A stretch of DNA of 40,076 nucleotides from positions 128,001 to 168,076 of IMG/VR virus record IMGVR_UViG_3300022205_000001; one strand, given 5' to 3'. This DNA is from a virus. Its lineage: Duplodnaviria > Heunggongvirae > Uroviricota > Caudoviricetes. The notes beneath the pieces are model-generated. The model saw only the letters and a program-made list of their open reading frames with translations. It made no database searches and was not told the DNA's origin. How positions within the stretch are numbered: position 1 is the first letter of the stretch; every line of letters begins with the position of its first letter. The position numbers and the translations under genes are program-made. Positions 22,130 through 39,225 of this stretch are shown one piece after another.

Positions 22130-23326
22130 TTATCCTTTCACGCATAACACCTGCCTCAACACGGCAACAACTTTGACCAGATCCTTCTGATCTTCCATCA
22201 CGGCATCAATGTCCTTGTATGCCGCAGGGATTTCATCCACCACACCTGCATCCTTACGACAGACAATTCCCGCGGTCTGCTTCTCAACATCCTCCGCGGT
22301 ATACAGTTCCTTTGCCTTTCCTCGTGACAACTGGCGTCCGGCACCATGCGAACAAGAGCAAAACGAATCAGAGTTTCCTAATCCCTGCACAATGTAGGAC
22401 CGGGTCCCCATTGAACCAGGAATGATCCCCATATCGCCCACGCGAGCCCGTACCGCACCCTTACGAGTGACAATCACGTTCTCCCCGAAATGGTTCTCCC
22501 GTTCCGCATAGTTATGGTGACAGTTTATCATGACTTCTGGGTCAATGATACCATACTTATCACCAAAGATTACTTCTGCAATCGCCTGAAGCGTCAACTT
22601 CATCATGATCTCACGGTTCTTCATGGCGTAGGACTGTGCCCACTGCAAATCGCGCCAGTACGCATCAAACAGAGGAGTACCCTCCGGCAGATACGCCAAG
22701 TCTGGGTTTTCCAGCTTGATCATGAATTGCTGCATCAACTCCTTGGCACAGTCAATGTAATAGTTCCCGATCTTGTTTCCAATTCCACGAGAACCTGAAT
22801 GCAGCATGACCCATACGTTGTTCTTTTCGTCTAAGCACACTTCGATGAAGTGGTTTCCACCACCGAGCGTACCTAACTGAGCCAGAGTCTTATCAAGCAA
22901 ACCCTTCGTAACAACTTCTGGAAGTTTGCAGTACCCAGGCATCATACCATTCCAAACAACCGCATCGTCGGTTGCCGTCTTATGCTGCCCCTGCCCAACA
23001 GGAATTGCCTTTGACAAGGCAGAAAACAAGGCATCCAATGAATCCGGTAAACGATCTGCTGAGAACGGCATCTGAGCCGCCATCATTCCGCACCCAATAT
23101 CCACACCAACCGCAGCCGGAACCAACGCACCCTTCGTCGCCACTACAGACCCAACGGTTGCACCCTTTCCATAGTGAACATCCGGCATAGCCGCTACATG
23201 CTTGAAGATGAATGGTAACGCAGCCGTCTGGCGCAATTGCACCTCAGACTGTAGATCTACATTCTTCGTCCAAATCTTGACCGGAACCGTTTGCTTCTCG
23301 CCCGTCAATACCTTTGAAATTCCCAT
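22130..23326 (-). CDS. rtcB: RtcB RNA ligase
   Basis: MPDVHYGKG, GVDIGCG, GTLGGGNHF, HSGSRG, HHNY, HGAGR, DEIPAAYK. Confidence 0.97.
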   Translation of the reverse strand: MGISKVLTGEKQTVPVKIWTKNVDLQSEVQLRQTAALPFIFKHVAAMPDVHYGKGATVGSVVATKGALVPAAVGVDIGCGMMAAQMPFSADRLPDSLDALFSALSKAIPVGQGQHKTATDDAVVWNGMMPGYCKLPEVVTKGLLDKTLAQLGTLGGGNHFIEVCLDEKNNVWVMLHSGSRGIGNKIGNYYIDCAKELMQQFMIKLENPDLAYLPEGTPLFDAYWRDLQWAQSYAMKNREIMMKLTLQAIAEVIFGDKYGIIDPEVMINCHHNYAERENHFGENVIVTRKGAVRARVGDMGIIPGSMGTRSYIVQGLGNSDSFCSCSHGAGRQLSRGKAKELYTAEDVEKQTAGIVCRKDAGVVDEIPAAYKDIDAVMEDQKDLVKVVAVLRQVLCVKG

Positions 23327-26712: not shown

Positions 26713-26786
26713 TGGTAGACCCTGAAGGTAACGCCCCGTCGTCTTCGCCATGTCATAGCGAGATTCTACTCTTGAACTAAGGGTCC
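26713..26786 (-). tRNA. tRNA-Val(GAC)
   Basis: Cloverleaf, loop ATGACAT, CCA; non-canonical T loop. Confidence 0.85.
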
Positions 26787-26790
26787 AATT

Positions 26791-26868
26791 TGGTCCGCCT
26801 GACAGGACTCGAACCTGCATAATCCGTGGGTCGAAACCACGGTGGCTTCCAGTTGCCGTCACAGGCGG
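26791..26868 (-). tRNA. tRNA-Arg(UCG)
   Basis: Loop TTTCGAC, GGTTCGA, CCA. Confidence 0.9.
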
Positions 26869-26869
26869 A

Positions 26870-27268
26870 TTAGATCAGATAGTCTTTCCACGATTGCTCA
26901 AACATACAGTTATCAGGTGCACCACGAAACAAGGGGGCAATCTGTTCGTTTGTATATCCAGCCAATCCACAGCCGATACGAGTTACGAAAAACTTTTCAT
27001 GAGGATGCTTTTTCGCGTATTCGATAAACTCACACACATAACCGAGAATTCTATCAAGACGTAGTGTGTTCAAAGATTCATCCTTTGTAGGGATTGCGTA
27101 GGACTGTCCTGTTCGTCCTTCCCCCACACCATACTGAGCCCCATACCAATACTTAGCAAATGCCGCCGCACCCGCCCCATGTCTCCCGGCTAAATTAGAC
27201 CCAAATACGAAAATGATCTGTTGGTGTTCTCGTGGGTCTCTGCGGTCATGCTCATTATAAAATTCCAT
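26870..27268 (-). CDS. Macro-like phage protein (FVFGSN family)
   Basis: IFVFGSNLAGRHGAGAA, SYAIPT, TRIGCGLAG. Confidence 0.8.
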   Translation of the reverse strand: MEFYNEHDRRDPREHQQIIFVFGSNLAGRHGAGAAAFAKYWYGAQYGVGEGRTGQSYAIPTKDESLNTLRLDRILGYVCEFIEYAKKHPHEKFFVTRIGCGLAGYTNEQIAPLFRGAPDNCMFEQSWKDYLI

Positions 27269-27283
27269 TACCGTCCCTCAAAT

Positions 27284-27358
27284 TGGTACCCCCGGCAGGA
27301 ATCGAACCTGCGTACATCACGTTAGGACCGTGAGACCTGTCCTCTAGGATACGGAGGT
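27284..27358 (-). tRNA. tRNA-Arg(CCU)
   Basis: Loop GTCCTAA, GGTTCGA, CCA. Confidence 0.9.
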
Positions 27359-27547
27359 GTGTAGTTCTTCGCCAACAATCAACTCAACCACATCAGTATT
27401 CTGGGCAAACTTCCCATGTTTCTTACAGATAGCTTTTACAATAGTCGCCGGATTACGAGATTTAGACTTTCGTATCTGTTCCTGTACAGTCTCACGAAGT
27501 TCTCTTAGGTGCTTGGCTTCTGTTGCGGCATCTCCGAATACTAGCAT
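27344..27547 (-). CDS. Hypothetical protein; stop lies inside tRNA-Arg(CCU)
   Basis: AAGGA SD, 67 aa. Confidence 0.6.
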   Translation of the reverse strand: MLVFGDAATEAKHLRELRETVQEQIRKSKSRNPATIVKAICKKHGKFAQNTDVVELIVGEELHTSVS

Positions 27548-27551
27548 GTTG

Positions 27552-27755
27552 TCAATCCTTCATCATCGGTTTGAACCACATCAATGCTTCGGTACATTCC
27601 TCAAACATATCTGAGGTAATCTCACCTTGCAATAACTGAATATGAAACACATTCATCAAGAATGACCACTTCTGCCAAGCAAGATCGTCACGAATTTCTT
27701 CATCCGTAAAATCCCCAGGCCCTCGCAGTTGACGCTTGATTTCAGTAAGTCTCAT
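27552..27755 (-). CDS. Hypothetical protein
   Basis: GGAG SD, 67 aa. Confidence 0.6.
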   Translation of the reverse strand: MRLTEIKRQLRGPGDFTDEEIRDDLAWQKWSFLMNVFHIQLLQGEITSDMFEECTEALMWFKPMMKD

Positions 27756-27765
27756 ACATAAACTC

Positions 27766-27842
27766 CGGTGACTCGCAAAGGGGTATCGATCCCCGACCTC
27801 TCAGTCCCATACTTTGAGTGTGCTCTCCTGCACTTGCGAATC
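27766..27842 (-). ncRNA. Aberrant tRNA-like RNA (11-nt anticodon loop containing GGG; ends ACCG)
   Basis: GATTCGCA/TGCGAGTC acceptor, GTGC/GCAC D stem, GGGG-ATCGATA-CCCC T arm. Confidence 0.65.
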
Positions 27843-27845
27843 AAT

Positions 27846-27922
27846 TGGTGCCCCCAACAGGATTTGAACCTGTGTTGTTCCGCTTAGAAGGCGGATGCCT
27901 CTCCAGACTAGACTATAGGGGC
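27846..27922 (-). tRNA. tRNA-Arg(UCU)
   Basis: Loop CTTCTAA, CCA. Confidence 0.92.
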
Positions 27923-27923
27923 A

Positions 27924-28007
27924 TTATCCTGTCACTGCAAAATACATGATTATGATTGCTACAATGAACAAAAACCCATATACCCAAACTTCCAAATAGT
28001 CAATCAT
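27924..28007 (-). CDS. 27-aa single-TM peptide
   Basis: AAGGA SD; MIDYLEVWVYGFLFIVAIIIMYFAVTG. Confidence 0.5.
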   Translation of the reverse strand: MIDYLEVWVYGFLFIVAIIIMYFAVTG

Positions 28008-28019
28008 AATATTCCTTTA

Positions 28020-28112
28020 TGGAGGAGAGAGGTGGACTTGCACCACTGCCGACAATATGTCGGCCGATCCGTTTTCGAGACGGCCCCAGTTCGCTTGCCT
28101 GGTTCACTCTCC
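28020..28112 (-). tRNA. tRNA-Ser(CGA)
   Basis: Loop CTCGAAA, long V arm, CCA. Confidence 0.88.
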
Positions 28113-28184
28113 ATTAGACGGATTCAATGAATAAAATATCACAATCAACATAAACAATGCCACAAGAAATATTCCGGTACCCAT
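28104..28184 (-). CDS. 26-aa single-TM peptide; stop inside tRNA-Ser(CGA)
   Basis: AAGGAG SD; MGTGIFLVALFMLIVIFYSLNPSNGE. Confidence 0.5.
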   Translation of the reverse strand: MGTGIFLVALFMLIVIFYSLNPSNGE

Positions 28185-28196
28185 GATTCTCCTTTT

Positions 28197-28507
28197 TGGT
28201 GGAGGTGCGGGGCATTGCAGCCCCGGTCCAAAGAAACATTTGAAATAGGAACTCCATGCTACTCAATCTGAATACGCACTAAGCTGACGGATTGAGACCT
28301 CAGCTTACGGAAGGAACCACCCTGACCAGCCTGTTATTACGCTGTTTCCATACACAGGCATCTATGGAACAACGAGCAACACTTAAGCTGCCAACGCGAA
28401 TTCAGATTCGACGTTTAGTTTTTGCTAATGAGATTAACGTGAGCACCAGCACTCACGGCATGACCTAGATTTCTCTTGTTTTCTCTGTCGAACTCCTTAT
28501 CACCCCC
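28197..28507 (-). ncRNA. ssrA: tmRNA, tag (A)VESEFALAA*
   Basis: GGGGGTG...TTCGAC 5' end, CACCTCCACCA 3' end with G3.U70, tag frame 28412-28383 ending ALAA-TAA. Confidence 0.93.
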
Positions 28508-29024
28508 GTATTTGATGTGTTCTACCCACTTCTTCTATCAATGAATATCCTTTATGACTTCGTTTTCTCTCCACTACGCCTTTATGAAATGAATTGTAGT
28601 TGAGCCCATTCTGAACACAAAATGTAGTCAAACATGGAACTTCTACAACCTCTCCACTTGGTGTTTTGAGCCGATAAGTTTTAGCGTATAGGTTATCCAC
28701 TCCATTTTTCCATACACAACTTGGATTGGGATTCCTATTTGGGTTACCGCATCCCCAACTTGATCTTGTTCCTTTTGGAAATCTTATTCCTGTTACAGAA
28801 CCACCCTTTTTCGATCCAGCCATTATTGCCGCTTGCAAACACTCATCGCTACTTTTTATTCCACTCAACCCTTGCCATGCGACATAATCCTGCCAATTCC
28901 CATGTTGTTCCCACAACTTCTTATGAGCAAGAGCATGTTCTTCGGGAGACAACTCCACTAAATTAGCAGGGGCATCTGTTCCACCAGCATATTTTGGAAT
29001 AATGTGATGTTTATGTTTTACCAT
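28500..29024 (-). CDS. HNH homing endonuclease
   Basis: HKHHIIPKYAGGTDAPANLVELSPEEHALAH; NUMOD-type C-terminus. Confidence 0.9.
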   Translation of the reverse strand: MVKHKHHIIPKYAGGTDAPANLVELSPEEHALAHKKLWEQHGNWQDYVAWQGLSGIKSSDECLQAAIMAGSKKGGSVTGIRFPKGTRSSWGCGNPNRNPNPSCVWKNGVDNLYAKTYRLKTPSGEVVEVPCLTTFCVQNGLNYNSFHKGVVERKRSHKGYSLIEEVGRTHQIRG

Positions 29025-29263
29025 GAATCGTAATCTGTTACATCTAACTCAGTCAATGTCACCGTGTCTTCAATCTTTACCACAACCCCAATTGACGTTG
29101 GAGTGATATGATACGTGAATGCTCCACCAATCGCTCCCGTCCTCGCAAGACCATTGTTCTCTAAGCGTTGAATAATCTTGGTTTGCTTCTTGATAAAACG
29201 ATCAACCTGTTTAGATTGTTTGGTGGTCAATATAATCAACGGCGCATTTTCTTTCATCATCAT
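29018..29263 (-). CDS. Hypothetical protein (GAIGGAFTY..TPTSIG..DYDSW family)
   Basis: Start moved to MMMKEN, outside the tRNA. Confidence 0.7.
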   Translation of the reverse strand: MMMKENAPLIILTTKQSKQVDRFIKKQTKIIQRLENNGLARTGAIGGAFTYHITPTSIGVVVKIEDTVTLTELDVTDYDSW

Positions 29264-29267
29264 CCTA

Positions 29268-29363
29268 TGGCGGAAGAGGGAGGTCTTGATCCCCAATGCC
29301 AGGAATTAGCTGGCATCCCATCGCCTTCCAAGCGAGTCTGGCGTCCTCACCAGTTCCTCTTCC
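29268..29363 (-). tRNA. tRNA-Ser(GGA)
   Basis: Loop TTGGAAG, long V arm, CCA. Confidence 0.88.
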
Positions 29364-29370
29364 AGTTCTA

Positions 29371-29463
29371 TGGCGGAGAGCGGAGGGCTTGCACCCCAAC
29401 GGGTTTTTACGCCGTCAATCCGCTTTCAAGGCGGTTCCGGTACGCTTGTCCGGTTCACTCTCC
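29371..29463 (-). tRNA. tRNA-Ser(UGA)
   Basis: Loop CTTGAAA, long V arm, CCA. Confidence 0.88.
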
Positions 29464-29939
29464 ATATTTTTCATGAAATCAAAATCTTGTATTTCTTCGT
29501 TTGTCCATTCATCATGGTGGAGGTCATAAGACTTAAGAGGTTCCACCAGGTTGAGCTTCTTCATCTTTCGTGCAGTCCGCCACACTTTCCAAGTCTCAAG
29601 AATAAACTGACACTTCCGCTTCACTCCATATCGTATCCAATATTTTATCGCATGATAAAATCTACTACAAAAATCCCGTAAAATACGGTTCCATAACATC
29701 CATTTTGGTAGTGAAGGAATATCAACGAATTCTGGATGCTTGATAGACCCAATTAACAACCATGTGTTATCACTCTGCTGTATCAGCAAACAATGACCAT
29801 CAAGGGCATACTTCTTCGCTTTCCATTTCGTAATCAACCTATGAGACAATAATTCTTCGGTAGTATTGAATTCAAATTCCTTCCGTAACGAGGGCAAATC
29901 TATAAAATATGGCATATACACATAGAATTTATTTCTCAT
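29415..29939 (-). CDS. Hypothetical protein; last 16 codons read into tRNA-Ser(UGA)
   Basis: GGAG SD before MRNKFY. Confidence 0.6.
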   Translation of the reverse strand: MRNKFYVYMPYFIDLPSLRKEFEFNTTEELLSHRLITKWKAKKYALDGHCLLIQQSDNTWLLIGSIKHPEFVDIPSLPKWMLWNRILRDFCSRFYHAIKYWIRYGVKRKCQFILETWKVWRTARKMKKLNLVEPLKSYDLHHDEWTNEEIQDFDFMKNMESEPDKRTGTALKAD

Positions 29940-29954
29940 CACATCTCCATATAT

Positions 29955-30029
29955 TGGTGCTCCCACCGGGTATCGATCCCGGTCCTCTAGATTGAGAATC
30001 TAGCGACCTAGCCAGTAGTCGATGGGAGC
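29955..30029 (-). tRNA. tRNA-Glu(CUC)
   Basis: Loop TTCTCAA, CCA. Confidence 0.92.
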
Positions 30030-30394
30030 AAATTCAAATTCATATCAAATACAGTTGTGAGCCACAGTGGTTTAGGCTCAACTCCCCGATAAAACAAGAC
30101 CACTGCCGACATGGGGTATTCTTTATTCACCAATTTCATTAAACTTCCACCGGTTGTCCACACATCATCTGCATACAAAATACAAGAAGATTCTTCAGAT
30201 CGATACTGATACAAGGCTTCAGCAAACTTCCATCCGCCACGAGGAATTCCGATCACGGTTCTGAATCGTAACTTGGGGGCAACCAATGCAGCGATTGCAG
30301 CCCAATCGTCAGAAGTCAATGCGTCACAATCAATCTTGAAATTTGATTTCTTCCCTGATGCTAATGTAAAATCCCCATGATTGAAAAGATTCAT
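30008..30394 (-). CDS. Type I phosphoribosyltransferase (orotate PRTase-like, short)
   Basis: GDFTLASGKKS, GIPRGG, ADDVWTTGGS. Confidence 0.85.
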   Translation of the reverse strand: MNLFNHGDFTLASGKKSNFKIDCDALTSDDWAAIAALVAPKLRFRTVIGIPRGGWKFAEALYQYRSEESSCILYADDVWTTGGSLMKLVNKEYPMSAVVLFYRGVEPKPLWLTTVFDMNLNLLPSTTG

Positions 30395-30410
30395 TACATC
30401 CTCATAATAT

Positions 30411-30487
30411 TGGTGGAACGGGTGGGAGTCGAACCCACGTATTCTTGGTTAAGAGCCAAGACTGAATGCCTCTCCAGTCACCGTTCC
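30411..30487 (-). tRNA. tRNA-Lys(CUU)
   Basis: Loop CTCTTAA, CCA. Confidence 0.92.
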
Positions 30488-30491
30488 GTTA

Positions 30492-30569
30492 TGGTGTCCC
30501 TGGTTGGATTTAAACCAACGTTCTCCGGTTTCGCAAACCGGCGTGTTATTCAGGCTTCACTACAGGGAC
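30492..30569 (-). tRNA. tRNA-Arg(GCG)
   Basis: Loop TTGCGAA, CCA. Confidence 0.85.
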
Positions 30570-30574
30570 GTAAT

Positions 30575-30649
30575 TGGTGCACGGTGTTGGTACTGCCCCA
30601 ACTTAGTCCACTTTGTAGGAGTGGTGCATATCTTTCCTGCCCACCGTGC
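30575..30649 (-). tRNA. tRNA-Val(UAC), C33
   Basis: Loop CCTACAA, CCA. Confidence 0.83.
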
Positions 30650-30658
30650 GTTCTATTC

Positions 30659-30735
30659 TGGAGCCCCTTGTTGGACTTGCACCAACCGTTTCCACTTTAC
30701 CAAAGTGGCGTGTCAACTACCTCTACTTAAGGGGC
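30659..30735 (-). tRNA. tRNA-Thr(GGU)
   Basis: Loop TTGGTAA, CCA. Confidence 0.88.
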
Positions 30736-30743
30736 ATATTGTA

Positions 30744-31071
30744 GTAGGAAGAACCATAGCCGGGGTTCTGTTCTATTCCATCATTTCTCTAGGAATATCA
30801 TTACTGATACCCTCAAGCCACCTACCCGTCAACATCATGAGAGCGTCACTTGTTCGTTGACCTATTTGGTGTTGCACCACGTAGAGATTGTTCGTATCAC
30901 CTCCCCATACTCTGAGCCTGATATGAGCAGTCTCGTATTATGAGTATGGTTCCTCGTCTCTTTAACTCTAATCCTCAGGTTACCCTGGGTGGCCGTTAGC
31001 CACTACGCTGCTCTTGGTGCCCCGAACTTCCTCTAGTGCATCAGTCACTAGCGATGGATCGTTCTTCCTAC
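30744..31071 (-). ncRNA. rnpB: RNase P RNA (type A-like)
   Basis: P1 GTAGGAAGAAC/GTTCTTCCTAC; GAGGAAGTTCGGG, GCAA..CCAAATAGG, CGGGTAGG..GCTTGAG, AGAGAAATGA, ACAGAACCCCGGCTAT blocks in order. Confidence 0.9.
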
Positions 31072-31087
31072 ATTCTCCTTTCTATCT

Positions 31088-31163
31088 TGGTACCATCGGT
31101 GGGATTTGAACCCACACTTGACTACTTTTGAGGTAGCTGACTCTGCCGTTGGTCTACGATGGC
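31088..31163 (-). tRNA. tRNA-Leu(CAA), short variable loop
   Basis: Loop CTCAAAA, 76 nt, CCA. Confidence 0.88.
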
Positions 31164-31173
31164 ATTAGTATCT

Positions 31174-31249
31174 TGGTACCGCTGGTGGGATTTGAACCCA
31201 CACTACACAGGGTTTAAGCCTGGTGACTCTGCCGTTGGTCTACAGCGGC
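31174..31249 (-). tRNA. tRNA-Leu(UAA), short variable loop
   Basis: Loop CTTAAAC, CCA. Confidence 0.88.
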
Positions 31250-31252
31250 ATA

Positions 31253-31327
31253 TGGAGCCCAACACCGGACTTGCGCCGGTCTCTTCCGCTTACGAAACGG
31301 ATGCATCGCTCTCAATGCTTGTCGGGC
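31253..31327 (-). tRNA. tRNA-Thr(CGU)
   Basis: Loop TTCGTAA, CCA. Confidence 0.88.
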
Positions 31328-31357
31328 ATTATAACATATCTCAGATACAAAAGTCAA
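31328..31357 (-). promoter_or_regulatory. Possible internal sigma70 promoter TTGACT-18-TATAAT
   Basis: Extended -10, but it abuts the tRNA-Thr 5' end, so the TSS would fall inside the tRNA. Confidence 0.45.
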
Positions 31358-31365
31358 CAACTATT

Positions 31366-31440
31366 TGGTGCCGCCGGTAGGAATCGAACCCACCTGAATC
31401 CGGTTAAAAGCCGGGAGCATAGCCACTCTGCCACGACGGC
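31366..31440 (-). tRNA. tRNA-Lys(UUU)
   Basis: Loop CTTTTAA, CCA. Confidence 0.92.
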
Positions 31441-31447
31441 GCTATAT

Positions 31448-31525
31448 TGGTCTGGATGGTGGGATTTGAACCCACAATTTCTCCGATCCGAACGGAGAGG
31501 AGTAGCCAGGTTCTCCTACATCCAG
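31448..31525 (-). tRNA. tRNA-Pro(CGG)
   Basis: Loop TTCGGAT, C1:G72, CCA. Confidence 0.9.
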
Positions 31526-31529
31526 GTTC

Positions 31530-31853
31530 TTAGTTTTCAATAACAGTATGCTTTTTCAGTTCAATATAAAACGATCTCTCAAGTCTAAACACTTTTCCTG
31601 CTGGTGCTGTCATTGGTTGCACAGAACATAATTCTTTAGCGATCACTGCCGGGTACGCTGTTCGCACGATATCAATAATACGATTCCGATTTTCCTGAGT
31701 ATTCGGTTTTCCAATAAACTGAGATAAACTATCTGCCAGGTATTCTGGTGCTGGTTCTGGTGCTGGTGCCTGGTCACTAAGAACTTTTACAGGGTTCAGT
31801 ATGACCGCGCCAACTGTGCCGATCAACACTTTCAGAAATGTTCGTCTATTCAT
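31530..31853 (-). CDS. Tat-signal protein carrying a gp23 (major capsid) Gol-region-like segment
   Basis: MNRRTFLK + hydrophobic core; IVRTAYPAVIAKELCSVQPMTAPAGKVF; GAGG SD. Confidence 0.7.
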   Translation of the reverse strand: MNRRTFLKVLIGTVGAVILNPVKVLSDQAPAPEPAPEYLADSLSQFIGKPNTQENRNRIIDIVRTAYPAVIAKELCSVQPMTAPAGKVFRLERSFYIELKKHTVIEN

Positions 31854-31870
31854 ACATGCCTCATAATAAT

Positions 31871-31944
31871 TGGAGCGACCACCGGATTCTGCCACCGGGA
31901 CTACGGGTTGGAAGCCCATCGTTTTGCTTCTAAACTATGGTCGC
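31871..31944 (-). tRNA. tRNA-Gly(UCC)
   Basis: Loop CTTCCAA, U73, CCA. Confidence 0.85.
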
Positions 31945-31956
31945 ATATTCAATTTT

Positions 31957-32031
31957 TGGAGCGGATGGCGGGAGTCGAACCCGCGTGATCTTCGTTGGCA
32001 ACGAAGCACATAACCGTTCTGTCACATCCGC
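31957..32031 (-). tRNA. tRNA-Gly(GCC)
   Basis: Loop TTGCCAA, CCA. Confidence 0.92.
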
Positions 32032-32040
32032 ATATGCAAT

Positions 32041-32115
32041 TGGCGCGGTCTCGGAGAATCGAACTCCGGTGTCTCCCTCTTCAGGGGAGTGCTTTACCAA
32101 CTAAGCTAAGACCGC
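32041..32115 (-). tRNA. tRNA-Phe(GAA)
   Basis: Loop CTGAAGA, CCA. Confidence 0.92.
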
Positions 32116-32120
32116 ATAAA

Positions 32121-32194
32121 TGGCTGGAGATGAAGGAGTCGAACCTTCCTAGCCGGTTTCAGAGACCGGTGCATTGCCGCTTTGCTAATCTCCA
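32121..32194 (-). tRNA. tRNA-Gln(CUG)
   Basis: Loop CTCTGAA, U1:A72, G73, CCA. Confidence 0.92.
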
Positions 32195-32346
32195 TCTTTT
32201 CTAAGTGGTATCACAAATGGATTATCATTGACCTTTCTTAATCTTTTCTTCAGTCTCAATAAATGCCGCGTAGCAATTTGTTCTGTAACAATATCACTGA
32301 ATTTCTCGATATCAGCTTCTAGTATTATCCTGGTCCTGGTTTCCAT
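32185..32346 (-). CDS. 53-aa hypothetical (METRTRIILEAD...); stop inside tRNA-Gln(CUG)
   Basis: Starts 2 nt after phosphoesterase stop. Confidence 0.5.
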   Translation of the reverse strand: METRTRIILEADIEKFSDIVTEQIATRHLLRLKKRLRKVNDNPFVIPLRKDGD

Positions 32347-32348
32347 AA

Positions 32349-32858
32349 TCAACTTCCGTTATACCACCAAATTCTCTTTCGTACTTCTTCCAACGAAATC
32401 GGTGCCCAATCCGTATGCTCGACACAGACACATTGATACCAAGGATCAGGTATCACATTCGCGTGTGTGTGCCCATGCACATTCGCTTTGAATCGTCCTT
32501 TACTCTCAGGATGCACTGGAATATGTGAGAGTAGCATATGATCTAACACATGGTACGCTCTGATATCCCGAAAATGCTTCAGATAATCTTTCAAACTGAA
32601 GATGTCATGGTTCCCTTTGATTAGAACCTTGTCACCATTCAATCGGCTGAGTGTCGCCAGGTTCTTGCGAGCGATAACAACATCACCTAGATGATAGACT
32701 TTATCGTTCGGTCGCACGACCTTGTTCCAACGCTCAACCATCACCTCATCCATTTCTTCGGGAGTTTCCCAAGGTCTCAGCTTGGTGCCATCATTCCGAA
32801 GAAACTTGCACATTCCAGCATGACCGAAATGCGTGTCTGCTGTCAGAAAAATATTCAT
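32349..32858 (-). CDS. Calcineurin-like phosphoesterase (phage type)
   Basis: ADTHFGH, HLGDV, GNHD, SHIP, HGHTH. Confidence 0.93.
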   Translation of the reverse strand: MNIFLTADTHFGHAGMCKFLRNDGTKLRPWETPEEMDEVMVERWNKVVRPNDKVYHLGDVVIARKNLATLSRLNGDKVLIKGNHDIFSLKDYLKHFRDIRAYHVLDHMLLSHIPVHPESKGRFKANVHGHTHANVIPDPWYQCVCVEHTDWAPISLEEVRKRIWWYNGS

Positions 32859-33040
32859 TTCGGATGCAACCCAAACACTTTCATTTCACGATATTCATCT
32901 TCCGTTCCATCAAAAAGAGAAACAGGACGATGATTACAAAATTGGCATCGTGAATTCACATGAACCGCACCGACTACATTCAATTCACTAATCCACCCAC
33001 ATCCACGACAACCAAACCAATGCATAATATTACTTTGCAT
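32855..33040 (-). CDS. Small zinc-ribbon protein
   Basis: CRGC...CQFC; AAGGA SD before MQSNIM. Confidence 0.6.
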   Translation of the reverse strand: MQSNIMHWFGCRGCGWISELNVVGAVHVNSRCQFCNHRPVSLFDGTEDEYREMKVFGLHPK

Positions 33041-33049
33041 ATTATTCCT

Positions 33050-33124
33050 TGGAAGCCCCACAGGGATTTGAACCCCGACCAATTGATTCAAAGTCAATTG
33101 TGCTGCCAGTTACACCATAGGGCT
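33050..33124 (-). tRNA. tRNA-Gln(UUG)
   Basis: Loop CTTTGAA, CCA. Confidence 0.9.
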
Positions 33125-33253
33125 ATGTATCTTTGCAATAATCTGTGCATCGATCTCCCGGCGAATCTCATTTGCAGCAAACCAATACAATTGGTGTTCT
33201 GCTGTGAGGAGATGCAACTTATATCGATATTTTCCACGGTTCTTCTTTCTCAT
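33110..33253 (-). CDS. 47-aa ORF (..AANEIRREIDAQIIAKI..); stop inside tRNA-Gln(UUG)
   Basis: AGGA SD; fills the inter-tRNA gap. Confidence 0.5.
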   Translation of the reverse strand: MRKKNRGKYRYKLHLLTAEHQLYWFAANEIRREIDAQIIAKIHSPMV

Positions 33254-33266
33254 AATAATATCCTAA

Positions 33267-33354
33267 TGGCGGAAGGTGAAGGATTTGAACCTTCGTGGGT
33301 GTTACCCCGCATCCCTTAGCAGGGGAGCCGAATTAGCCTCTCTCGCAACCTTCC
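33267..33354 (-). tRNA. tRNA-Ser(GCU)
   Basis: Loop CTGCTAA, long V arm, CCA. Confidence 0.92.
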
Positions 33355-33367
33355 AAAAATCTTTTTT

Positions 33368-33455
33368 GTGGTGCTTCGCCCCGTTCACAACTGGACTAAC
33401 GGGGGTGTGCATTATCCAGCTTCCCTCTCTTCCACAACACCACTGAAGAGACTGT
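33368..33455 (-). ncRNA. Unassigned structured RNA with possible pseudoknot
   Basis: GTGGTGTT/AGCACCAC, CCCCGTT/AACGGGG, loop TCCAGTT complementary to AGCTGGA. Confidence 0.45.
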
Positions 33456-33461
33456 GCCTCT

Positions 33462-33536
33462 TGGAGTCGCCGGAGGGATTTGCACCCCCGTCATGCCGCT
33501 TTGCAGGCGGCTGCCTCGCTACTCGGCCACGGCGAC
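33462..33536 (-). tRNA. tRNA-Cys(GCA)
   Basis: Loop CTGCAAA, U73, CCA. Confidence 0.92.
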
Positions 33537-33641
33537 ATTAAAACAATATACTCCAACCAACAACAAAGTAGACTTTATGTGACGCGAAAGTGTTTCCGGC
33601 ATTGAACCACACTTCGCCATGCTCAAGTAACCACAACATAA

Positions 33642-33729
33642 TGGGCTGGAGGAGGCTGGATTTGCACCAGTCCATACGAATGTATGCATCACCCTCGTAT
33701 GTCTAGATTTCCCTTCTAGCCGTCCTCCA
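33642..33729 (-). ncRNA. tRNA-like RNA with elongated anticodon arm
   Basis: TGGAGGA/TCCTCCA, CTAGA/TCTAG, CATACGA/TCGTATG, CTGG-TGCAAAT-CCAG, ends CCA. Confidence 0.65.
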
Positions 33730-33736
33730 CTCTATT

Positions 33737-33814
33737 TGGCGCCCATGATGGGATTTGAACCCACGATCTTTTGCGTGACAAGCAAACGGGGACTCCAGGC
33801 TCCCCTACACAGGC
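33737..33814 (-). tRNA. tRNA-Asp(GUC)
   Basis: Loop TTGTCAC, G73, CCA. Confidence 0.92.
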
Positions 33815-33825
33815 ATAAATCTTTT

Positions 33826-34038
33826 TTACGCTGGAACCGCATAACGGTTCCGTATGCTCCACTAGCACATGGCTAGCAAGTTTCTTCAATCCCAAGAGAA
33901 GAGTAGAAGGCTTTCACTTCGTTCGCAAAGTATCCGTATACTCACCTTCCACTATTCTTTGGATGCCGGCCACACGGGCTGTTGCCTGTTGCCGGCTCTA
34001 TCTCACAGATTTGCGGCCGCCCCCATGAGACAGCGTAA
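33826..34038 (-). ncRNA. Unassigned ~210-nt multibranch RNA
   Basis: Closing helix TTACGCTG/CAGCGTAA enclosing five hairpins. Confidence 0.6.
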
Positions 34039-34040
34039 TA

Positions 34041-34108
34041 TGGTGGTGAGAGACTTTCTACTTTCGTTTTACCTCATGCAACGAGGTGTCCGTAGCTCGC
34101 CCCTCACC
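34041..34108 (-). ncRNA. Armless CCA-ended hairpin RNA
   Basis: GGTGAGGGGC/GTCTCTCACC + ACCA; no D or T arm. Confidence 0.55.
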
Positions 34109-34112
34109 AAAC

Positions 34113-34196
34113 TGGTGGATAGCCAGAGAGTCGAACTCTGCGAGAATTAACGACGGTGTTACAGACCGCCCCGCCTCCGTAACGGTTTAGCTACCC
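34113..34196 (-). tRNA. tRNA-Tyr(GUA)
   Basis: Loop CTGTAAC, extended V region, CCA. Confidence 0.88.
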
Positions 34197-34209
34197 CTAT
34201 ATCAAAAAT

Positions 34210-35045
34210 TGGTGGGGTCTCTTATAGAGCGATCACAACCCCCTCTCGCTTTAGCTGAAACTTTTAGAGCGTCAGTCAGCCATCTTCGCTATCAGGTGCC
34301 TAGGTCCTCAGTTATTCCCCGGCAGGGAGGACTCCACGATAATTGCCGGGCCAGATGTTCCCATGTCTGCACCTGTTGGGGAACCCACGAATCGATCCGG
34401 TCCTCTTGGGAGCGGAAAATCTAGGGGTCAGTGATTTTAGTGGTCCCACCCCCAAGCCCCACCCTGCACTCCGTTCTCCGTCGCAAGGACCATGAACTTG
34501 CACAGGTCAGAGAATCTTAAGCTTCTCCGATAGGAAACCTTTGTTATGGCAGTGTTTCGTCTGCCTTAGTGCAGTCTTCCCTTTTACAAGAATGGAATCA
34601 ACCCAGTGGTCAGCTTCCCTGCACATTCTATTTCTTTGAGTGCGAAAGGTGAACTAGAGGTTCCTCGTTCAGCTTCCTGAAAGATTAGCCAACCTTGCTG
34701 GCATCTCTTTCCTTCAGCACCGGACCGTATTTCTTCCCTCGGTGCCTGTGTCGCTTTGGGCGCGGTTATCACTCTATAGTGGCCGCAGCAAGTTACCCGC
34801 CGTTCTTGTCGCATTGGGGCGCTTGCCTCACCCCGCCGATTTTATTGTAGGATCGCCCGTGCTGCGCGGGTTCTGATCAGTGTTTTCCCCATGAATCGTA
34901 TACTATTCATGGGCACTATTGGGTGCTACCCCAATTACATCCTACAATATTTACTCAAACTCTTTTGTCTATCAAGCGACAGATTCGCCTCTAGGCGCTT
35001 TATTGATCCGATTGGGATCGCTTATTCTGTCGCTCATTCATCATA
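34210..35045 (-). ncRNA. Large (~830 nt) highly structured RNA, family unassigned
   Basis: No credible ORF, GC-rich, many helices and a pseudoknot, own promoter. Confidence 0.7.
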
Positions 35046-35050
35046 TTAAG

Positions 35051-35079
35051 AGTATAACAGACTCATTCTATCCTGTCAA
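35051..35079 (-). promoter_or_regulatory. Sigma70 promoter TTGACA-17-TATACT with A-tract UP region, driving the large RNA
   Basis: -10 at 35051-56, -35 at 35074-79, IHF-like box at 35121-33. Confidence 0.88.
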
Positions 35080-35223
35080 GGGTCTTTTTGCACTTTTTTC
35101 AAAAATATTTTTCTCAATACTTTCAAGCACTTAGAAATCGTCCCTTTTCGCTATAGGGGATTATCCTCTTATCCAAAAACACCGCCTATAAGCCGGTTTT
35201 GACCGTTTTTCGAGCATCCTATA

Positions 35224-35312
35224 TGGTACACCCGTATGGAATCGAACCATATCAAGCCGGTAATCTGCCGGGAAGGACTTATAAGGTCCTCTTGCCTCCA
35301 AGGCGCGGGTGC
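35224..35312 (-). tRNA. tRNA-Ile(UAU) with long V arm and minimal D arm
   Basis: Loop CTTATAA; V arm CCGG-CAGATTA-CCGG; GGTTCGA; CCA. Confidence 0.8.
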
Positions 35313-35319
35313 ATCTATT

Positions 35320-35395
35320 TGGTGCCTGTGAGAGGATTTGAACCTCTACTTCACGGCTTCTAAGACCGTTGACTCTGCCGTTGGTCTACACAGGC
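35320..35395 (-). tRNA. tRNA-Leu(UAG), short variable loop
   Basis: Loop CTTAGAA, CCA. Confidence 0.88.
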
Positions 35396-35400
35396 ATAGT

Positions 35401-35474
35401 TGGTGCCGGTAGAAGGAATTGCACCTTCTCAGAATGACTTATGAAATCATCTGGCTTCGCTTGTGCTTACCGGC
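35401..35474 (-). tRNA. tRNA-Met/Ile2(CAU), weak D arm
   Basis: Loop TTCATAA, CCA. Confidence 0.78.
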
Positions 35475-36045
35475 TATTGTTATACCGCTTTAGCCCTTCA
35501 CTTATCTTTTGTTTATAATCATCAGAAAGTGTTTTACCTTTATTCCAAGGAATGCGGCCTTTCTGTGATTCACTCATCTTTCTCTTCGTTTCTTCAGAAT
35601 GACGTTTGCCTATGAATCCATTCTTCATCAAACCATTTCGCCATGCTTCTATTGACTTTTCAGAACATATTCGTTTTGTTTTTTCCGTGTGGGTCTTACC
35701 TAAAAAAGGTCGTGCTTTCTTGCCGCCTGCCGACTGAAGGGCTTTCCATTGTTCAGGTGTTTTTACATTATTCGCATAATCCCACCCACCAAACCCACCT
35801 TGCTTGAGATTATAGGTATGTGGTCCCAAAACTACTAACTCTTTTTCCTTCTGAAACATTTCCTCAGAAGTATTTGCTTCAAACAGGATTTCCCTAATGA
35901 AGTTATTAGCACCATACTTCTCAATGGCTCGTTTGAGAAGAGTTCCTGACCCCAGGTACCCATCATCACGATCTTGTGTTTGGTGAGAGCCAATGTAAAA
36001 CTTTCCATTCACTAAGTTTGTTGTTTTATAGACCAAATAGAGCAT
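35467..36045 (-). CDS. GIY-YIG homing endonuclease (Seg-like) with NUMOD3 repeats
   Basis: LVYKTTNLVNGKFYIGSH, YLGSG, GKTHTEKTK, GKRHSEETKRKMS; late box at 36065-72, AGGAGG SD. Confidence 0.93.
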   Translation of the reverse strand: MLYLVYKTTNLVNGKFYIGSHQTQDRDDGYLGSGTLLKRAIEKYGANNFIREILFEANTSEEMFQKEKELVVLGPHTYNLKQGGFGGWDYANNVKTPEQWKALQSAGGKKARPFLGKTHTEKTKRICSEKSIEAWRNGLMKNGFIGKRHSEETKRKMSESQKGRIPWNKGKTLSDDYKQKISEGLKRYNNSR

Positions 36046-36078
36046 ATTAGTACCTCCTATGCGCTATTTAGTCTTATG

Positions 36079-36152
36079 TAGCGGGCCACCGGAGTTGCAC
36101 CGGGAACATAAGGTTATGGGCCTTATCGGGTCACTGTCCCCTGCCACCCGCA
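36079..36152 (-). tRNA. tRNA-Met(CAU), initiator-like (U1xU72), C33, no encoded CCA
   Basis: Loop CCCATAA; TGCGGGT/GCCCGCT acceptor; ends ACAT. Confidence 0.75.
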
Positions 36153-36156
36153 AACT

Positions 36157-36233
36157 TGGTGCCTCTGGTAGGATTTGAACCTTCACTAAACAGGCTCTCG
36201 ACCTGCCGACTCTGCCAATTGGTCTACAGAGGC
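36157..36233 (-). tRNA. tRNA-Leu(GAG), short variable loop, C33
   Basis: Loop TCGAGAG, CCA. Confidence 0.85.
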
Positions 36234-36239
36234 AATATC

Positions 36240-36322
36240 ATGGACAGAGTATTCTACCACTTGAACTACTAGCAGTGTGTAGCTGCTAACCAGGGCATTG
36301 AAACCTGGATCTCTCCGCTTAT
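36240..36322 (-). ncRNA. Circularly permuted tRNA-like RNA (T arm - closed acceptor - D arm)
   Basis: GCGGAG, CCAGG/CCTGG, TTAGCAG-CTACACA-CTGCTAG, TAGTTCAAGTGGTAGAAT, CTCTGT. Confidence 0.8.
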
Positions 36323-36397
36323 TGGTCTAGGCGACAGGATTCGCACCTGCATGGTCCCCGCCCCAAACGGGGTGGTCCACTCTTGACCCACGCCTAG
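36323..36397 (-). tRNA. tRNA-Pro(UGG)
   Basis: Loop TTTGGGG, C1:G72, CCA. Confidence 0.92.
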
Positions 36398-36402
36398 ATA
36401 TT

Positions 36403-36477
36403 TGGCGCTCCCTACGGGTATCGATCCCGTTCCTGAAGCTTGAAAGGCTTCCGACCTAGCCAGTAGTCGAAGGGAGC
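36403..36477 (-). tRNA. tRNA-Glu(UUC)
   Basis: Loop CTTTCAA, CCA. Confidence 0.92.
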
Positions 36478-36488
36478 ATATTCAATTT

Positions 36489-36563
36489 TGGTGGACCGAC
36501 CGGGCTTCGCTCCCGGCTCTCAACATTGCAAGTGTTGTGTTTTCCTGAATAAACTATCAGCCC
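36489..36563 (-). tRNA. tRNA-Ala(UGC) 1
   Basis: Loop CTTGCAA, G3.U70, CCA. Confidence 0.9.
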
Positions 36564-36568
36564 ATATT

Positions 36569-36643
36569 TGGTGGAGGTTGGCGGTTCTGCCCCGCCGACT
36601 TCTCGGTGCAAGCGAGATGGTTTCCTAATTAGCCTAAACCCCC
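36569..36643 (-). tRNA. tRNA-Ala(UGC) 2
   Basis: Loop CTTGCAC, G3.U70, CCA. Confidence 0.88.
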
Positions 36644-36655
36644 ATATTTTCTTTT

Positions 36656-36859
36656 AGCCCGTTCATTACTTCCACCTAAGCTTGGAAGACTGCCCTCACG
36701 GCAGCGAACGGAGCCTGCTTACCGGCTTGGGGTGATTGTGAGTAGCACTAGCCCTTTATCGGCTACGGTACATCTCACGCCCCAAACCTACATATTTTTG
36801 TTATCCTTTTACCCCGCCGTGTATAACGGGAACCGTATTAGGAGTTAGGAAAGGATAAC
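36656..36859 (-). ncRNA. Three consecutive unassigned structured RNA modules
   Basis: GTTATCCTTT/AAAGGATAAC; GGTTTGGGG/CCCCAAGCC; three-way junction closed by CCGTTC/GAACGG. Confidence 0.5.
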
Positions 36860-36864
36860 TCTCT

Positions 36865-36939
36865 TGGGGTGTCTGGTGGGCCAACGCACCCACATACCCA
36901 GGGCCACAACCTGGTACCTTACTCTTAGGTTACAGACAC
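36865..36939 (-). tRNA. tRNA-His(GUG)
   Basis: Loop TTGTGGC, C73, CCA; no encoded G-1. Confidence 0.85.
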
Positions 36940-37000
36940 AATCGATCTGGGTCCACGTAGGAGCCAGAAACTTTGGGATTCTTGTAAGGATGCATCAAGC

Positions 37001-37075
37001 TGGAGCCCATTGAGGGAATCGAACCCCCTTATCCGAGGTACAAACTCGGCGCATCACCATTTATGCTTAACGGGC
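37001..37075 (-). tRNA. tRNA-Thr(UGU)
   Basis: Loop TTTGTAC, CCA. Confidence 0.92.
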
Positions 37076-37398
37076 TAAAAACTCTTTCCTTCTTTGTACC
37101 TAACTCTACGAAAATGCCTACCCTTACCAATGTTCCTAGTCTTGTATGTTGGTGTCAACCCGTGACAATTGAGGCACAGCAATCTAGTATTTTTCACAGA
37201 ATCATTATCACTGTTACCGTCATCATGCTCAACATCTAAGGGAATAGGAACTCCATTCCATTCTTTCAATCCACACTGTTGACATTGATACCCTCGCTCC
37301 TCTATCAGGTATTTGCGAAGAGTCTGAGGATTAAGGGATACGCATGTTCCCGCTAACCAAGATTTACGCATCTCCACAAAATCTTTTCTATACGCCAT
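37075..37398 (-). CDS. HNH endonuclease (start uncertain)
   Basis: CQQCG..LDVEHDDGNSDND..NTRLLCLNCH. Confidence 0.82.
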   Translation of the reverse strand: MAYRKDFVEMRKSWLAGTCVSLNPQTLRKYLIEERGYQCQQCGLKEWNGVPIPLDVEHDDGNSDNDSVKNTRLLCLNCHGLTPTYKTRNIGKGRHFRRVRYKEGKSF

Positions 37399-37527
37399 AT
37401 TGATCTTACCAACAAGTTTCTGTTGACAACGGATGCAGGATTTCTGCGTGTCCTCCCCTTACAGGCGACTGGGCTACCTGCACAACCCCTGGTACCTTGG
37501 AGTCTGCTTGGTGTTTACATCAATCCG

Positions 37528-38052
37528 TTATGTCAATTCTGCCGTCCAATACAAATAATCACGCCAGGTCTCTGGCATTGTTCGCAATCCAATCGTGACC
37601 GTCACGACCTGCGCCCACTGAGGCTGCTTCGGCTTGCGAATCAACTTCATCCTCGCCTGTTCCGGTGTGCGTCCCGCCTTGCGGGAATTACAATCCACAC
37701 ACGCCGTCACAATGTTGTCCCAGGACTTCACGCCACCCTGAGTCACTGGCTTGACGTGATCGAACGTCAACTCTTCTGATTTAAACTTCTCTCCGCAATA
37801 CTGACATGACCAGTTATCCCTAGTGAAGATATTCAATCGCGTAAACTTCACCGGAATTTTACGCTTCAATCTCACCGGCATCAACATACGGATAACCGAT
37901 GGGATCTTCATCGTGAAAGAGATCGAATGAATTTCTTCGTTATGTTCCTCAATCACTTCTACCTTACCACTCCATAAAAGAGTAATGGCTCGTTGCCAGG
38001 TTACAATTTGTAGTGGTTCATAATGTGCATTAAGAACTAGCGTATGATTCAT
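37528..38052 (-). CDS. McrA-like HNH endonuclease
   Basis: LVLNAHYEPL, RDNWSCQYCG, DHVKP..GG..WDNIVTACVDCNSRK. Confidence 0.93.
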   Translation of the reverse strand: MNHTLVLNAHYEPLQIVTWQRAITLLWSGKVEVIEEHNEEIHSISFTMKIPSVIRMLMPVRLKRKIPVKFTRLNIFTRDNWSCQYCGEKFKSEELTFDHVKPVTQGGVKSWDNIVTACVDCNSRKAGRTPEQARMKLIRKPKQPQWAQVVTVTIGLRTMPETWRDYLYWTAELT

Positions 38053-38602
38053 GATGCATCCCTTTTTTACAATTGTCAAAATGGTACCGCTTCATCCCAG
38101 GTATCCCACCAACTTTATGACAATTTGGGCATTCTATTCGCTTTTGTGCTTTGCCCCTCATTCGTTCAGATTTCCTCAAATTTCTCTCTAACGAATGCTT
38201 TACTCCCCTCAATGTATCAGAAATCTTTTTTCTCGATTCTTCCGAAAATGTCTTTCCTAATCGATATGAATTTCCCTGGATTCTTTCTGCTTGAGCTTGC
38301 CTCCGTTCCGGTGTATGAGGAGGCATTTTCTTTCCTTTAGCATGTTGGTTGCCCTTCATATACTCAGAAGCAACCATTCTCTGAACATCGCCTTTACTTA
38401 TCTTACCTGACATCATCAATGCTGCTAAACGATCATACTCACTTCCATTCAATTCATAGAGTAGTTCATGTGCCTGTATATGTTGTTCCAGGGTCAACCA
38501 AACCACATTATCTGACGCATTGTAATCCCTATCGTATCTAGTCACATTCGGATTGATTCTACTTTTCCATTCATGAAATGGAATTACATGATGTTTATAC
38601 AT
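38030..38602 (-). CDS. HNH homing endonuclease with NUMOD3
   Basis: HHVIP..NVVWLTLEQHIQAH, SEESRKKIS, CPNC..RYHFDNC. Confidence 0.88.
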   Translation of the reverse strand: MYKHHVIPFHEWKSRINPNVTRYDRDYNASDNVVWLTLEQHIQAHELLYELNGSEYDRLAALMMSGKISKGDVQRMVASEYMKGNQHAKGKKMPPHTPERRQAQAERIQGNSYRLGKTFSEESRKKISDTLRGVKHSLERNLRKSERMRGKAQKRIECPNCHKVGGIPGMKRYHFDNCKKGMHHESYASS

Positions 38603-38617
38603 TCACACTCTTATAAA

Positions 38618-38691
38618 TGGCATGCCAGCGAGGAATCGAACCCCGGTCTTCTAGTTTGGAGCTAGAAATGTTCCCACTACACCACCAGCAT
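38618..38691 (-). tRNA. tRNA-Trp(CCA)
   Basis: Loop CTCCAAA, G73, CCA. Confidence 0.92.
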
Positions 38692-38696
38692 ATTAA

Positions 38697-38774
38697 TGGC
38701 TCCGGTCCCAGGGATCGAACCTGGCTCGTTCTCCGTTAACAGCGGAGCGCACTCACCCTGAATGCTAGACCGGA
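38697..38774 (-). tRNA. tRNA-Asn(GUU)
   Basis: Loop CTGTTAA, CCA. Confidence 0.92.
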
Positions 38775-38792
38775 ATACACTCTATTCAATTT

Positions 38793-38866
38793 TGGTACGC
38801 CCTCATGGTACTGCCCCATGTACTCCCGCTAATCAGGCGAGCGCCTCACTTTTTGGCCTAGAGCGT
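38793..38866 (-). tRNA. tRNA-Ile(GAU)
   Basis: Loop CTGATTA, CCA; non-canonical T loop. Confidence 0.85.
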
Positions 38867-38874
38867 ATAATCTT

Positions 38875-38948
38875 TGGTGGAGCCATACGGAATCGCACCG
38901 TAATTTCCACGTTGCCGACGTGGTATAATCCTTTTATATCATGGCCCC
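38875..38948 (-). tRNA. tRNA-Ala(GGC), C33; first tRNA of the array
   Basis: Loop TCGGCAA, G3.U70, CCA. Confidence 0.88.
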
Positions 38949-38952
38949 TTAT

Positions 38953-38988
38953 AAACAAAAAGCCGAAGGGTTTGTCTCCCCTTCGGCT
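38953..38988 (-). terminator. Intrinsic terminator/attenuator just before the first tRNA
   Basis: AGCCGAAGGG-GAGACAAA-CCCTTCGGCT followed by TTTTGTTT. Confidence 0.88.
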
Positions 38989-39039
38989 CTACTTTCTCTC
39001 TTCTCCCCTTGTAACATCGGGGAGTGATGCTACAAGTTC

Positions 39040-39153
39040 TTATGTATTTGCCTGTTCAATATTACCGAGAAACAAATGCCATGCCGCTGGATACACGGGT
39101 GACATACTATCTAGTGTCCCTTTAGTTTCTTGATAACGGCTTCGTGAATCCAT
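39040..39153 (-). CDS. Putative attenuator leader peptide MDSRSRYQETKGTLDSMSPVYPAAWHLFLGNIEQANT
   Basis: AGGGAG SD-like, 37 codons, between promoter and terminator. Confidence 0.7.
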   Translation of the reverse strand: MDSRSRYQETKGTLDSMSPVYPAAWHLFLGNIEQANT

Positions 39154-39185
39154 AACTCCCTACTACTTGCTCGATGATGTTTAAG

Positions 39186-39225
39186 AGTATAACACAGTTT
39201 CTTGTCCCTGTCAAGAGTATTTATA
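39186..39225 (-). promoter_or_regulatory. Tandem promoters of the tRNA array: sigma70 TTGACA-17-TATACT and late TATAAATA
   Basis: -10 at 39186-91, -35 at 39209-14, late box at 39218-25. Confidence 0.88.

Follow-up and report, generated by a model that had tools for sequence, protein, structure and literature searches.

Why phages carry tRNA genes is a long-standing question, and the head of one large phage tRNA array raises it in a specific form: does transcription of these genes depend on how well ribosomes are decoding? The window analysed here, 40,076 nt in length, is the end of the complete circular 168-kb genome of an uncultured T4-like myophage (IMG/VR record IMGVR_UViG_3300022205_000001, positions 128,001 to 168,076). 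Its minus strand, on which all window features described below lie, carries ~40 tRNA genes covering all 20 amino acids (26716–38948). A small ORF and a terminator precede the first of them, and an initial annotation proposed that they form an attenuator. We find that the array is very probably headed by a translation-linked cis-acting switch, and we regard the full model, a ribosome-dependent attenuator that tests all amino acids and allows read-through upon stalling, as likely.

The elements proposed for this cassette are all present in their places. Both an early and a late promoter precede the leader, as annotated, with the T4-type late box TATAAATA (39225–39218; nine exact copies in the genome, 9/9 on this strand) lying 5′ of the σ70-type early promoter (39214–39186; TTGACA-17-TATACT with extended TG, 11/12 match). 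The leader ORF, the proposed sensor (39153–39040), has 37 codons, 29 of them distinct, and encodes 19 of the 20 amino acids, lacking Cys. An ENA assembly annotates this ORF as a gene; it has gene-like codon usage and shares its start context, GGGAGTTATG, with the RtcB gene of the phage, while its Shine–Dalgarno spacing is only 2 nt. Hairpin A (39036–39008; 11 bp) carries the loop ACUCCCC (39025–39019), which contains the proposed antiterminator strand CUCCCC (39024–39019). The intrinsic terminator together with its U tract spans 38990–38953 (hairpin 38990–38959; −21.7 kcal/mol). The two GGGGAG partners assigned to this loop are likewise located: the proximal copy (39008–39003) is proposed to capture CUCCCC, forming hairpin B, once hairpin A has its 5′ arm covered, while the distal copy (38981–38976), which straddles the upper 5′ arm of the terminator and its loop, is the target of the hairpin A loop. 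The strong terminator ends a few nucleotides before the first tRNA gene with no promoter in between, defining a terminated transcript of 230 nt. A further pairing, between the ORF and the terminator loop, is possible at this locus and is unlikely to be conserved, because the terminator loop is 4 nt in most relatives. Taken alone the locus is unconvincing, since single-locus tests under three nulls give p ~0.03–0.04 for 19 amino acids and p 0.08–0.25 for 29 codons.

We therefore turned to relatives, traced through an HNH gene a few tRNAs into the array, which defines a clade of ~50 phages (65–84% identity). The comparison set (n = 17) comprises this phage and the 16 distinct relatives whose upstream region was available; the leader of contig L013/L018, which begins inside the terminator, was left out. 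In 17/17, the cassette heads the tRNA array and follows one order: late box, usually a σ70 promoter, an ORF of 32–39 codons, hairpin A, a linker, the terminator and a U tract. All 17 leaders have a TAAATA box upstream, and a σ70 promoter similar to that of the window precedes the leader in most relatives. In L127 and L128 the ATG follows the late box by 5 nt, which would fit a leaderless late transcript, given the geometry of T4 promoters. A covariance model built from ten cassettes recovers exactly these 17 elements, with one copy in this genome, and finds no match in five more distant phage records. Several other candidates were rejected: a weak covariance-model match in a Nitrospira genome corresponds to an ordinary terminator behind a gene of 265 aa, 12 hits of a hairpin A pattern scan are chance matches in coding DNA with no tRNAs, and a terminator-pattern match in L025 has no tRNA there. 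A DNA search of cultured phages gave tRNA matches only, and searches with two upstream small proteins and a tRNA-Ala pattern gave nothing useful.

The relatives show the anatomy of an attenuator. Specifically, a short conserved ORF lies between the promoter and the genes to be regulated, and its frame is open in 17/17 leaders, as against 1/34 for the other two frames; an intrinsic terminator precedes the first regulated gene; and 17/17 have a second pairing, incompatible with the terminator and close enough to the leader for the ribosome to reach, hairpin A beginning 0–4 nt past the leader stop. The ratio pN/pS is ~0.5 in most related leader pairs, and peptide identity averages 30%. With its own promoters and terminator the cassette yields a discrete RNA, so that the 230-nt transcript might instead be a trans-acting small RNA or the mRNA of a functional peptide, with any pseudoknot being structural. 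We consider this highly improbable: the leader and the terminated RNA match no Rfam 15 family (T-box, riboswitch or sRNA) at gathering score, no protein family or true homologue was found for the peptide (phmmer returned only the query itself and three repeat artefacts), peptide identity is just 30%, and the loop pairing and the terminator are mutually exclusive.

The most distinctive property of the leaders is their composition. The 17 leaders contain 19, 20, 20, 19, 20, 19, 19, 20, 20, 18, 17, 20, 16, 20, 20, 18 and 18 different amino acids (mean 19.0), eight of them having 20/20. By comparison, gene windows matched for length average 15.4, the remaining frames of the same DNA 15.6, and a set of 79 further small ORFs from these loci 15.5, with no member of that set containing 20. 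The 11 leaders collected after the hypothesis was set average 18.7. The observed 323 compares with 290 ± 4 after permutation of alignment columns; when each of ten independent lineages is represented by a single leader, 186–189 stands against 167–169; and in chimeric leaders assembled across lineages the mean drops to 17.9. Together with the 30% identity, these permutation, lineage and chimera results argue that shared descent does not explain the completeness, and the sequences support a leader kept near-complete in amino acids, or 'pan-amino-acid', by selection. Most amino acids occur once per leader; in particular, a single copy is usual for His, Tyr, Phe, Val, Asp and Glu, at positions that differ between leaders, and Trp occurs exactly once in 17/17. 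The comparison proposed beforehand, a search of related arrays for codon diversity in a variable peptide next to a covarying terminator and antiterminator, thus came out as predicted at the level of amino acids.

The invariant Trp, which lies 10–15 residues from the end in 16/17 leaders, bears on a different reading, in which the leader is a generic sensor of translation speed or an arrest peptide: a conserved Trp 12–14 residues before the stop and an Ile-x-x-Gly tail would slow the ribosome from within the exit tunnel, the full amino-acid set being incidental. A loose similarity to the SecM motif FxxxxWIxxxxGIRAGP is seen in some tails (PMC10951299). The critical Arg and the terminal Pro of GIRAGP are absent, which led us to reject a SecM-type arrest peptide, and positional conservation does not account for completeness, leaving this reading a slim chance. 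An arrest feature may be an addition to the attenuator that lengthens the dwell at the stop codon.

Completeness holds at the level of amino acids rather than codons. The leader had been described as 'pan-codon', a description that we abandon because the peptide itself predicts the codon variety observed: distinct codons are no more numerous than synonymous codons drawn at random would give (window p = 0.70; mean Z 0.4–0.7 over 17 leaders). Grouping codons by decoding class gives a mild excess (mean Z 1.3, from leaders that are not independent). Likewise, the window leader touches 26/38 anticodon types of the array and leaves 12/38 unsampled; it also lacks Cys although the array has a tRNA-Cys. 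The leader codons are thus tied to the function of the downstream genes, a near-20 leader facing an all-20 array, at the level of the amino acid and not of the isoacceptor. In addition, codons for Tyr, His, Asn and Asp, the queuosine-family codons, are almost always NAU (85 NAU vs 3 NAC in 17 leaders). The ratio is 52:2 in ten lineage representatives against a locus baseline of 0.53–0.75 (p ~1e-7 at 0.66), and the bias does not extend to the codons of Phe and Cys. Strict use of NAU may make the leader especially sensitive to loss or under-modification of queuosine-family tRNAs. GAA is also preferred over GAG (21:1), and Ala, Thr, Ser and Pro favour C- and A-ending codons across the 17 leaders.

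The RNA downstream of the stop codon is conserved as well. Hairpin A is more stable than shuffled sequences (z = −3.65 in the window; mean −2.5 over 17), and both stems, hairpin A and the terminator, covary. Two-sided changes occur in 12/14 modelled stem pairs, a level reached by 0/500 shuffles and above all slid controls, in an alignment of related sequences that was fitted to the model. The hairpin A loop carries CUCCC or CCCC, and the terminator invariably has a complementary G-run (GGGAG) at its top, the point from which the hairpin nucleates. This loop–terminator pairing is present in 17/17 and is stronger between own than between swapped partners, own pairs giving −12.4 kcal/mol, swapped pairs −11.0 kcal/mol (p = 0.0002) and shuffled pairs −6.1 kcal/mol. 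The loop usually has 1–2 unpaired nucleotides followed by 5–7 pairing nucleotides, which is the geometry of a pseudoknot, and a rough estimate of the pseudoknot gain is 8–12 kcal/mol in 16/17. Hairpin B, between CUCCCC and the proximal G-run, folds at −7.5 kcal/mol or lower in 13/17, and its strength does not exceed that in composition-matched shuffles. It is absent or weak in L125, L127, L128 and L138; in three of these four leaders the antiterminator strand lies at most 11 nt from the stop, and L127 has almost no hairpin A.

From the conserved anatomy, open frame, composition and pairing, all of which are observed, we infer translation, switching, direction and trigger as follows. When the ribosome is stalled, or never loads, hairpin A would fold, and its CUCCC loop would pair with the GGGAG that tops the emerging terminator. 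The resulting pseudoknot would keep the terminator from nucleating, so that RNA polymerase would enter the tRNA genes. A ribosome that arrives at the stop codon would melt the 5′ arm of hairpin A, and the freed C-run would either pair with the closer G-run, as hairpin B, or lie under the ribosome; the terminator would then form and transcription would stop. Since the RNA switch lies wholly downstream of the stop codon, a stall at almost any codon should act alike, and the one-of-each content of the leader would match an array with tRNAs for all 20 amino acids. Candidate triggers would be tRNA cleavage, a phage-driven drain on tRNAs and starvation. In short, these phages probably make more tRNA when ribosomes fail to finish the leader. 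A single codon per amino acid gives only a brief pause compared with the codon runs of trp/his-type leaders, which counts against the model. A stall in the last codons should be invisible to the switch, and single-copy amino acids are not depleted there (p = 0.16–0.44), so that no blind zone was detected.

The direction of the switch is addressed by folding. The annotation had assigned read-through to the stalled state, and folding arguments make this the better-supported direction, because hairpin A shows the antiterminator strand in its loop instead of burying it in a stem. Without a ribosome, five leaders (six with L125 at 0.60) favour the antiterminator even when no pseudoknot term is included. 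Folding with simulated ribosome positions, as had been suggested, gave a divided outcome. With 6–12 nt past the stop covered, the C-run of the window shifts to the proximal G-run, forming hairpin B with P = 0.96–0.98, whereas at equilibrium with the ribosome on the stop a nested antiterminator still forms in 13/17 leaders. The latter result, together with the ordinary strength of hairpin B against shuffles, implies that the OFF state would depend on the order of folding, hairpin B forming first. Similarly, every full-length fold contains the terminator, so that read-through would have to be kinetic.

The same folds admit the opposite polarity, a stringent-like switch in which the completed leader opens hairpin A and its loop and 3′ arm form a nested antiterminator of 8–10 bp. 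The tRNA genes would then be made only with all 20 amino acids charged and be shut off by starvation. The 13/17 equilibrium folds with 6–12 nt covered agree with such an arrangement, as does the duplex, which often reaches into the 3′ arm of hairpin A, and one codon per amino acid rather than per isoacceptor would suit a sensor of charging. Against it, the antiterminator stays exposed in the loop of hairpin A, several leaders favour it when no ribosome is present, and covering favours hairpin B in the window, L135 and L136. L127, in addition, has scarcely a hairpin A to open, and there a terminating ribosome would cover the C-run and remove the antiterminator directly. We judge both the inverted switch and the regulation that it would impose on the tRNA genes to be unlikely, and we favour, on modelled folds, read-through upon stalling. 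The most specific form of the favoured model, a protein-free decoding gauge encoded by the phage, with one codon per amino acid and a pseudoknot antiterminator after the stop, that would turn on replacement tRNAs when almost any tRNA is depleted by host anticodon nucleases or by infection, has in our estimate a little less than an even chance.

How much of the array is gated depends on its internal promoters. There is no strong terminator within the array, so read-through could span all of it. However, strong σ70 promoters at 35079 (35079–35051) and 31357 (31357–31328) bypass the leader and can feed the distal tRNA genes; early in infection, therefore, only about the first 15 tRNA genes, those between the terminator and position 35079, would depend on the leader, and the claim that it gates the tRNA array was overstated to that extent. 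In L127 and L133 an internal promoter precedes the first tRNAs or lies among them. Within the array region the exact late box is confined to the leader, which may thus be the main entry late in infection. These promoters, the weak single-locus statistics and the many similar units of promoter and small ORF in the genome would also suit an ordinary small early gene with a constitutive terminator, the tRNAs being made by leak-through or from other promoters. Such an arrangement, which is very unlikely in our view, leaves unexplained the completeness across ten lineages, the fixed distance from stop to hairpin, the covarying hairpin, the loop–terminator complementarity and a strong terminator lying a few nucleotides before the first tRNA with no intervening promoter.

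The array holds more than tRNA genes. A full class A RNase P RNA (30741–31070) and a tmRNA (28197–28507) are encoded within it, as are HNH and GIY-YIG-type genes, and an RtcB tRNA ligase gene (22130–23326) lies just downstream, a position consistent with defence against tRNA cleavage. The first gene 3′ of the terminator, tRNA-Ala(GGC) (38948–38878), is missed by default ARAGORN and detected by Rfam (49.6 bits). It has C instead of U at position 33, tRNA-Val(GAC) (26716–26786) has A at position 32, and many array tRNAs do not reach the default ARAGORN score. An HNH_5 gene (37528–38079) occupies one position of the array throughout the clade (65–84% identity), is ~60% identical to a chromosomal Nitrospira gene and looks like a retained gene rather than a mobile homing endonuclease. 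The best bacterial matches of one array gene are mostly from Nitrospiraceae, a hint from a single gene at the possible host and not a host assignment.

Several conserved non-coding segments accompany the array. Positions 34200–35050 within the array, ~850 nt without a long ORF and with their own strong promoter at 35079, match no Rfam family, are conserved in part in relatives and are a candidate large non-coding RNA. A ~100-nt RNA motif (79–92% identity; a pseudoknot is possible; no Rfam family) occurs in the window (~34295–34395), L029 (3407–3497), L135 (8351–8447), L138 (7925–8019) and L136 (6605–6701), the L029 copy lying directly 3′ of the attenuator. A second motif, TAGTCA followed by a hairpin with TGACT in its loop and likely a pseudoknot, occupies the gap from terminator to first tRNA in L027 (3140), L029 (3540), L133 (3002), L134 (3145) and L135 (3543); it was not found in the window, and the L029 copy has no Rfam match. 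L123 (~2229–2490) and L126 (~2157–2400) share an extra non-coding promoter-to-terminator unit of ~230 nt directly 5′ of the leader promoter.

The cassette can be compared with known attenuators. In trpL, hisL, pheL, thrL and ilvGMEDA, a short translated leader, alternative hairpins and an intrinsic terminator provide feedback on the supply that is decoded. Such leaders contain runs for 1–3 amino acids, depend on a ribosome stall at one fixed place, over segment 1, and terminate when untranslated. The phage cassette shares the short, probably translated leader, the alternative hairpins and the terminator, and differs in its single codons, a switch wholly 3′ of the stop, an untranslated state predicted to be ON and tRNA genes as targets. 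It is not a strict trp/his attenuator, having no codon run for one to three amino acids, and the modelled folding of the leaders leans against termination of the untranslated leader, without being decisive.

The closest published case is the whiB7 (wblC) uORF attenuator of mycobacteria, in which efficient uORF translation leads to a Rho-independent terminator and stalling or loss of the start codon leads to read-through, the logic of the phage model (10.1101/2023.06.02.543512). The uORF amino acids set what is sensed there, and the M. smegmatis uORF has all except Cys (10.1101/2023.06.02.543512). However, whiB7 uORFs are longer, Ala-enriched and, in other species, devoid of several amino acids, and they control a bacterial transcription factor, whereas the phage leader has 32–39 codons, is near-complete across lineages, would control tRNA genes and has an apparent loop–terminator pseudoknot. 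Membership of the whiB7/wblC family was rejected, as the downstream genes are phage tRNAs and Ala is not enriched (6.7% vs 7.4% in phage genes). In the E. coli toiL–topAI uORF, stalls at various positions of a short uORF induce the downstream genes; that system uses RBS occlusion and Rho and senses antibiotics, and the available part of the paper reports no amino-acid completeness (PMC12121999). Phage tRNAs replace host tRNAs cleaved by VapC, PrrC and the colicins D and E5, according to the available part of another study, which points to the likely purpose of the output and concerns tRNA sequence rather than on-demand transcription (PMC10264068). In the literature covered, which included few subscription papers, we found no description of attenuated phage tRNA genes or of all-20 leaders.

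The conserved regulatory element would carry leader-peptide attenuation beyond the genes for amino acids and resistance, to those for tRNAs. If the model is true, the 230-nt cassette would be a ready reporter for tRNA-targeting defence systems, and the composition of the leader would reveal what the phage monitors. Transcription of tRNAs only on decoding failure would, moreover, be direct evidence that phages carry them to replace depleted tRNAs rather than for static codon compensation.
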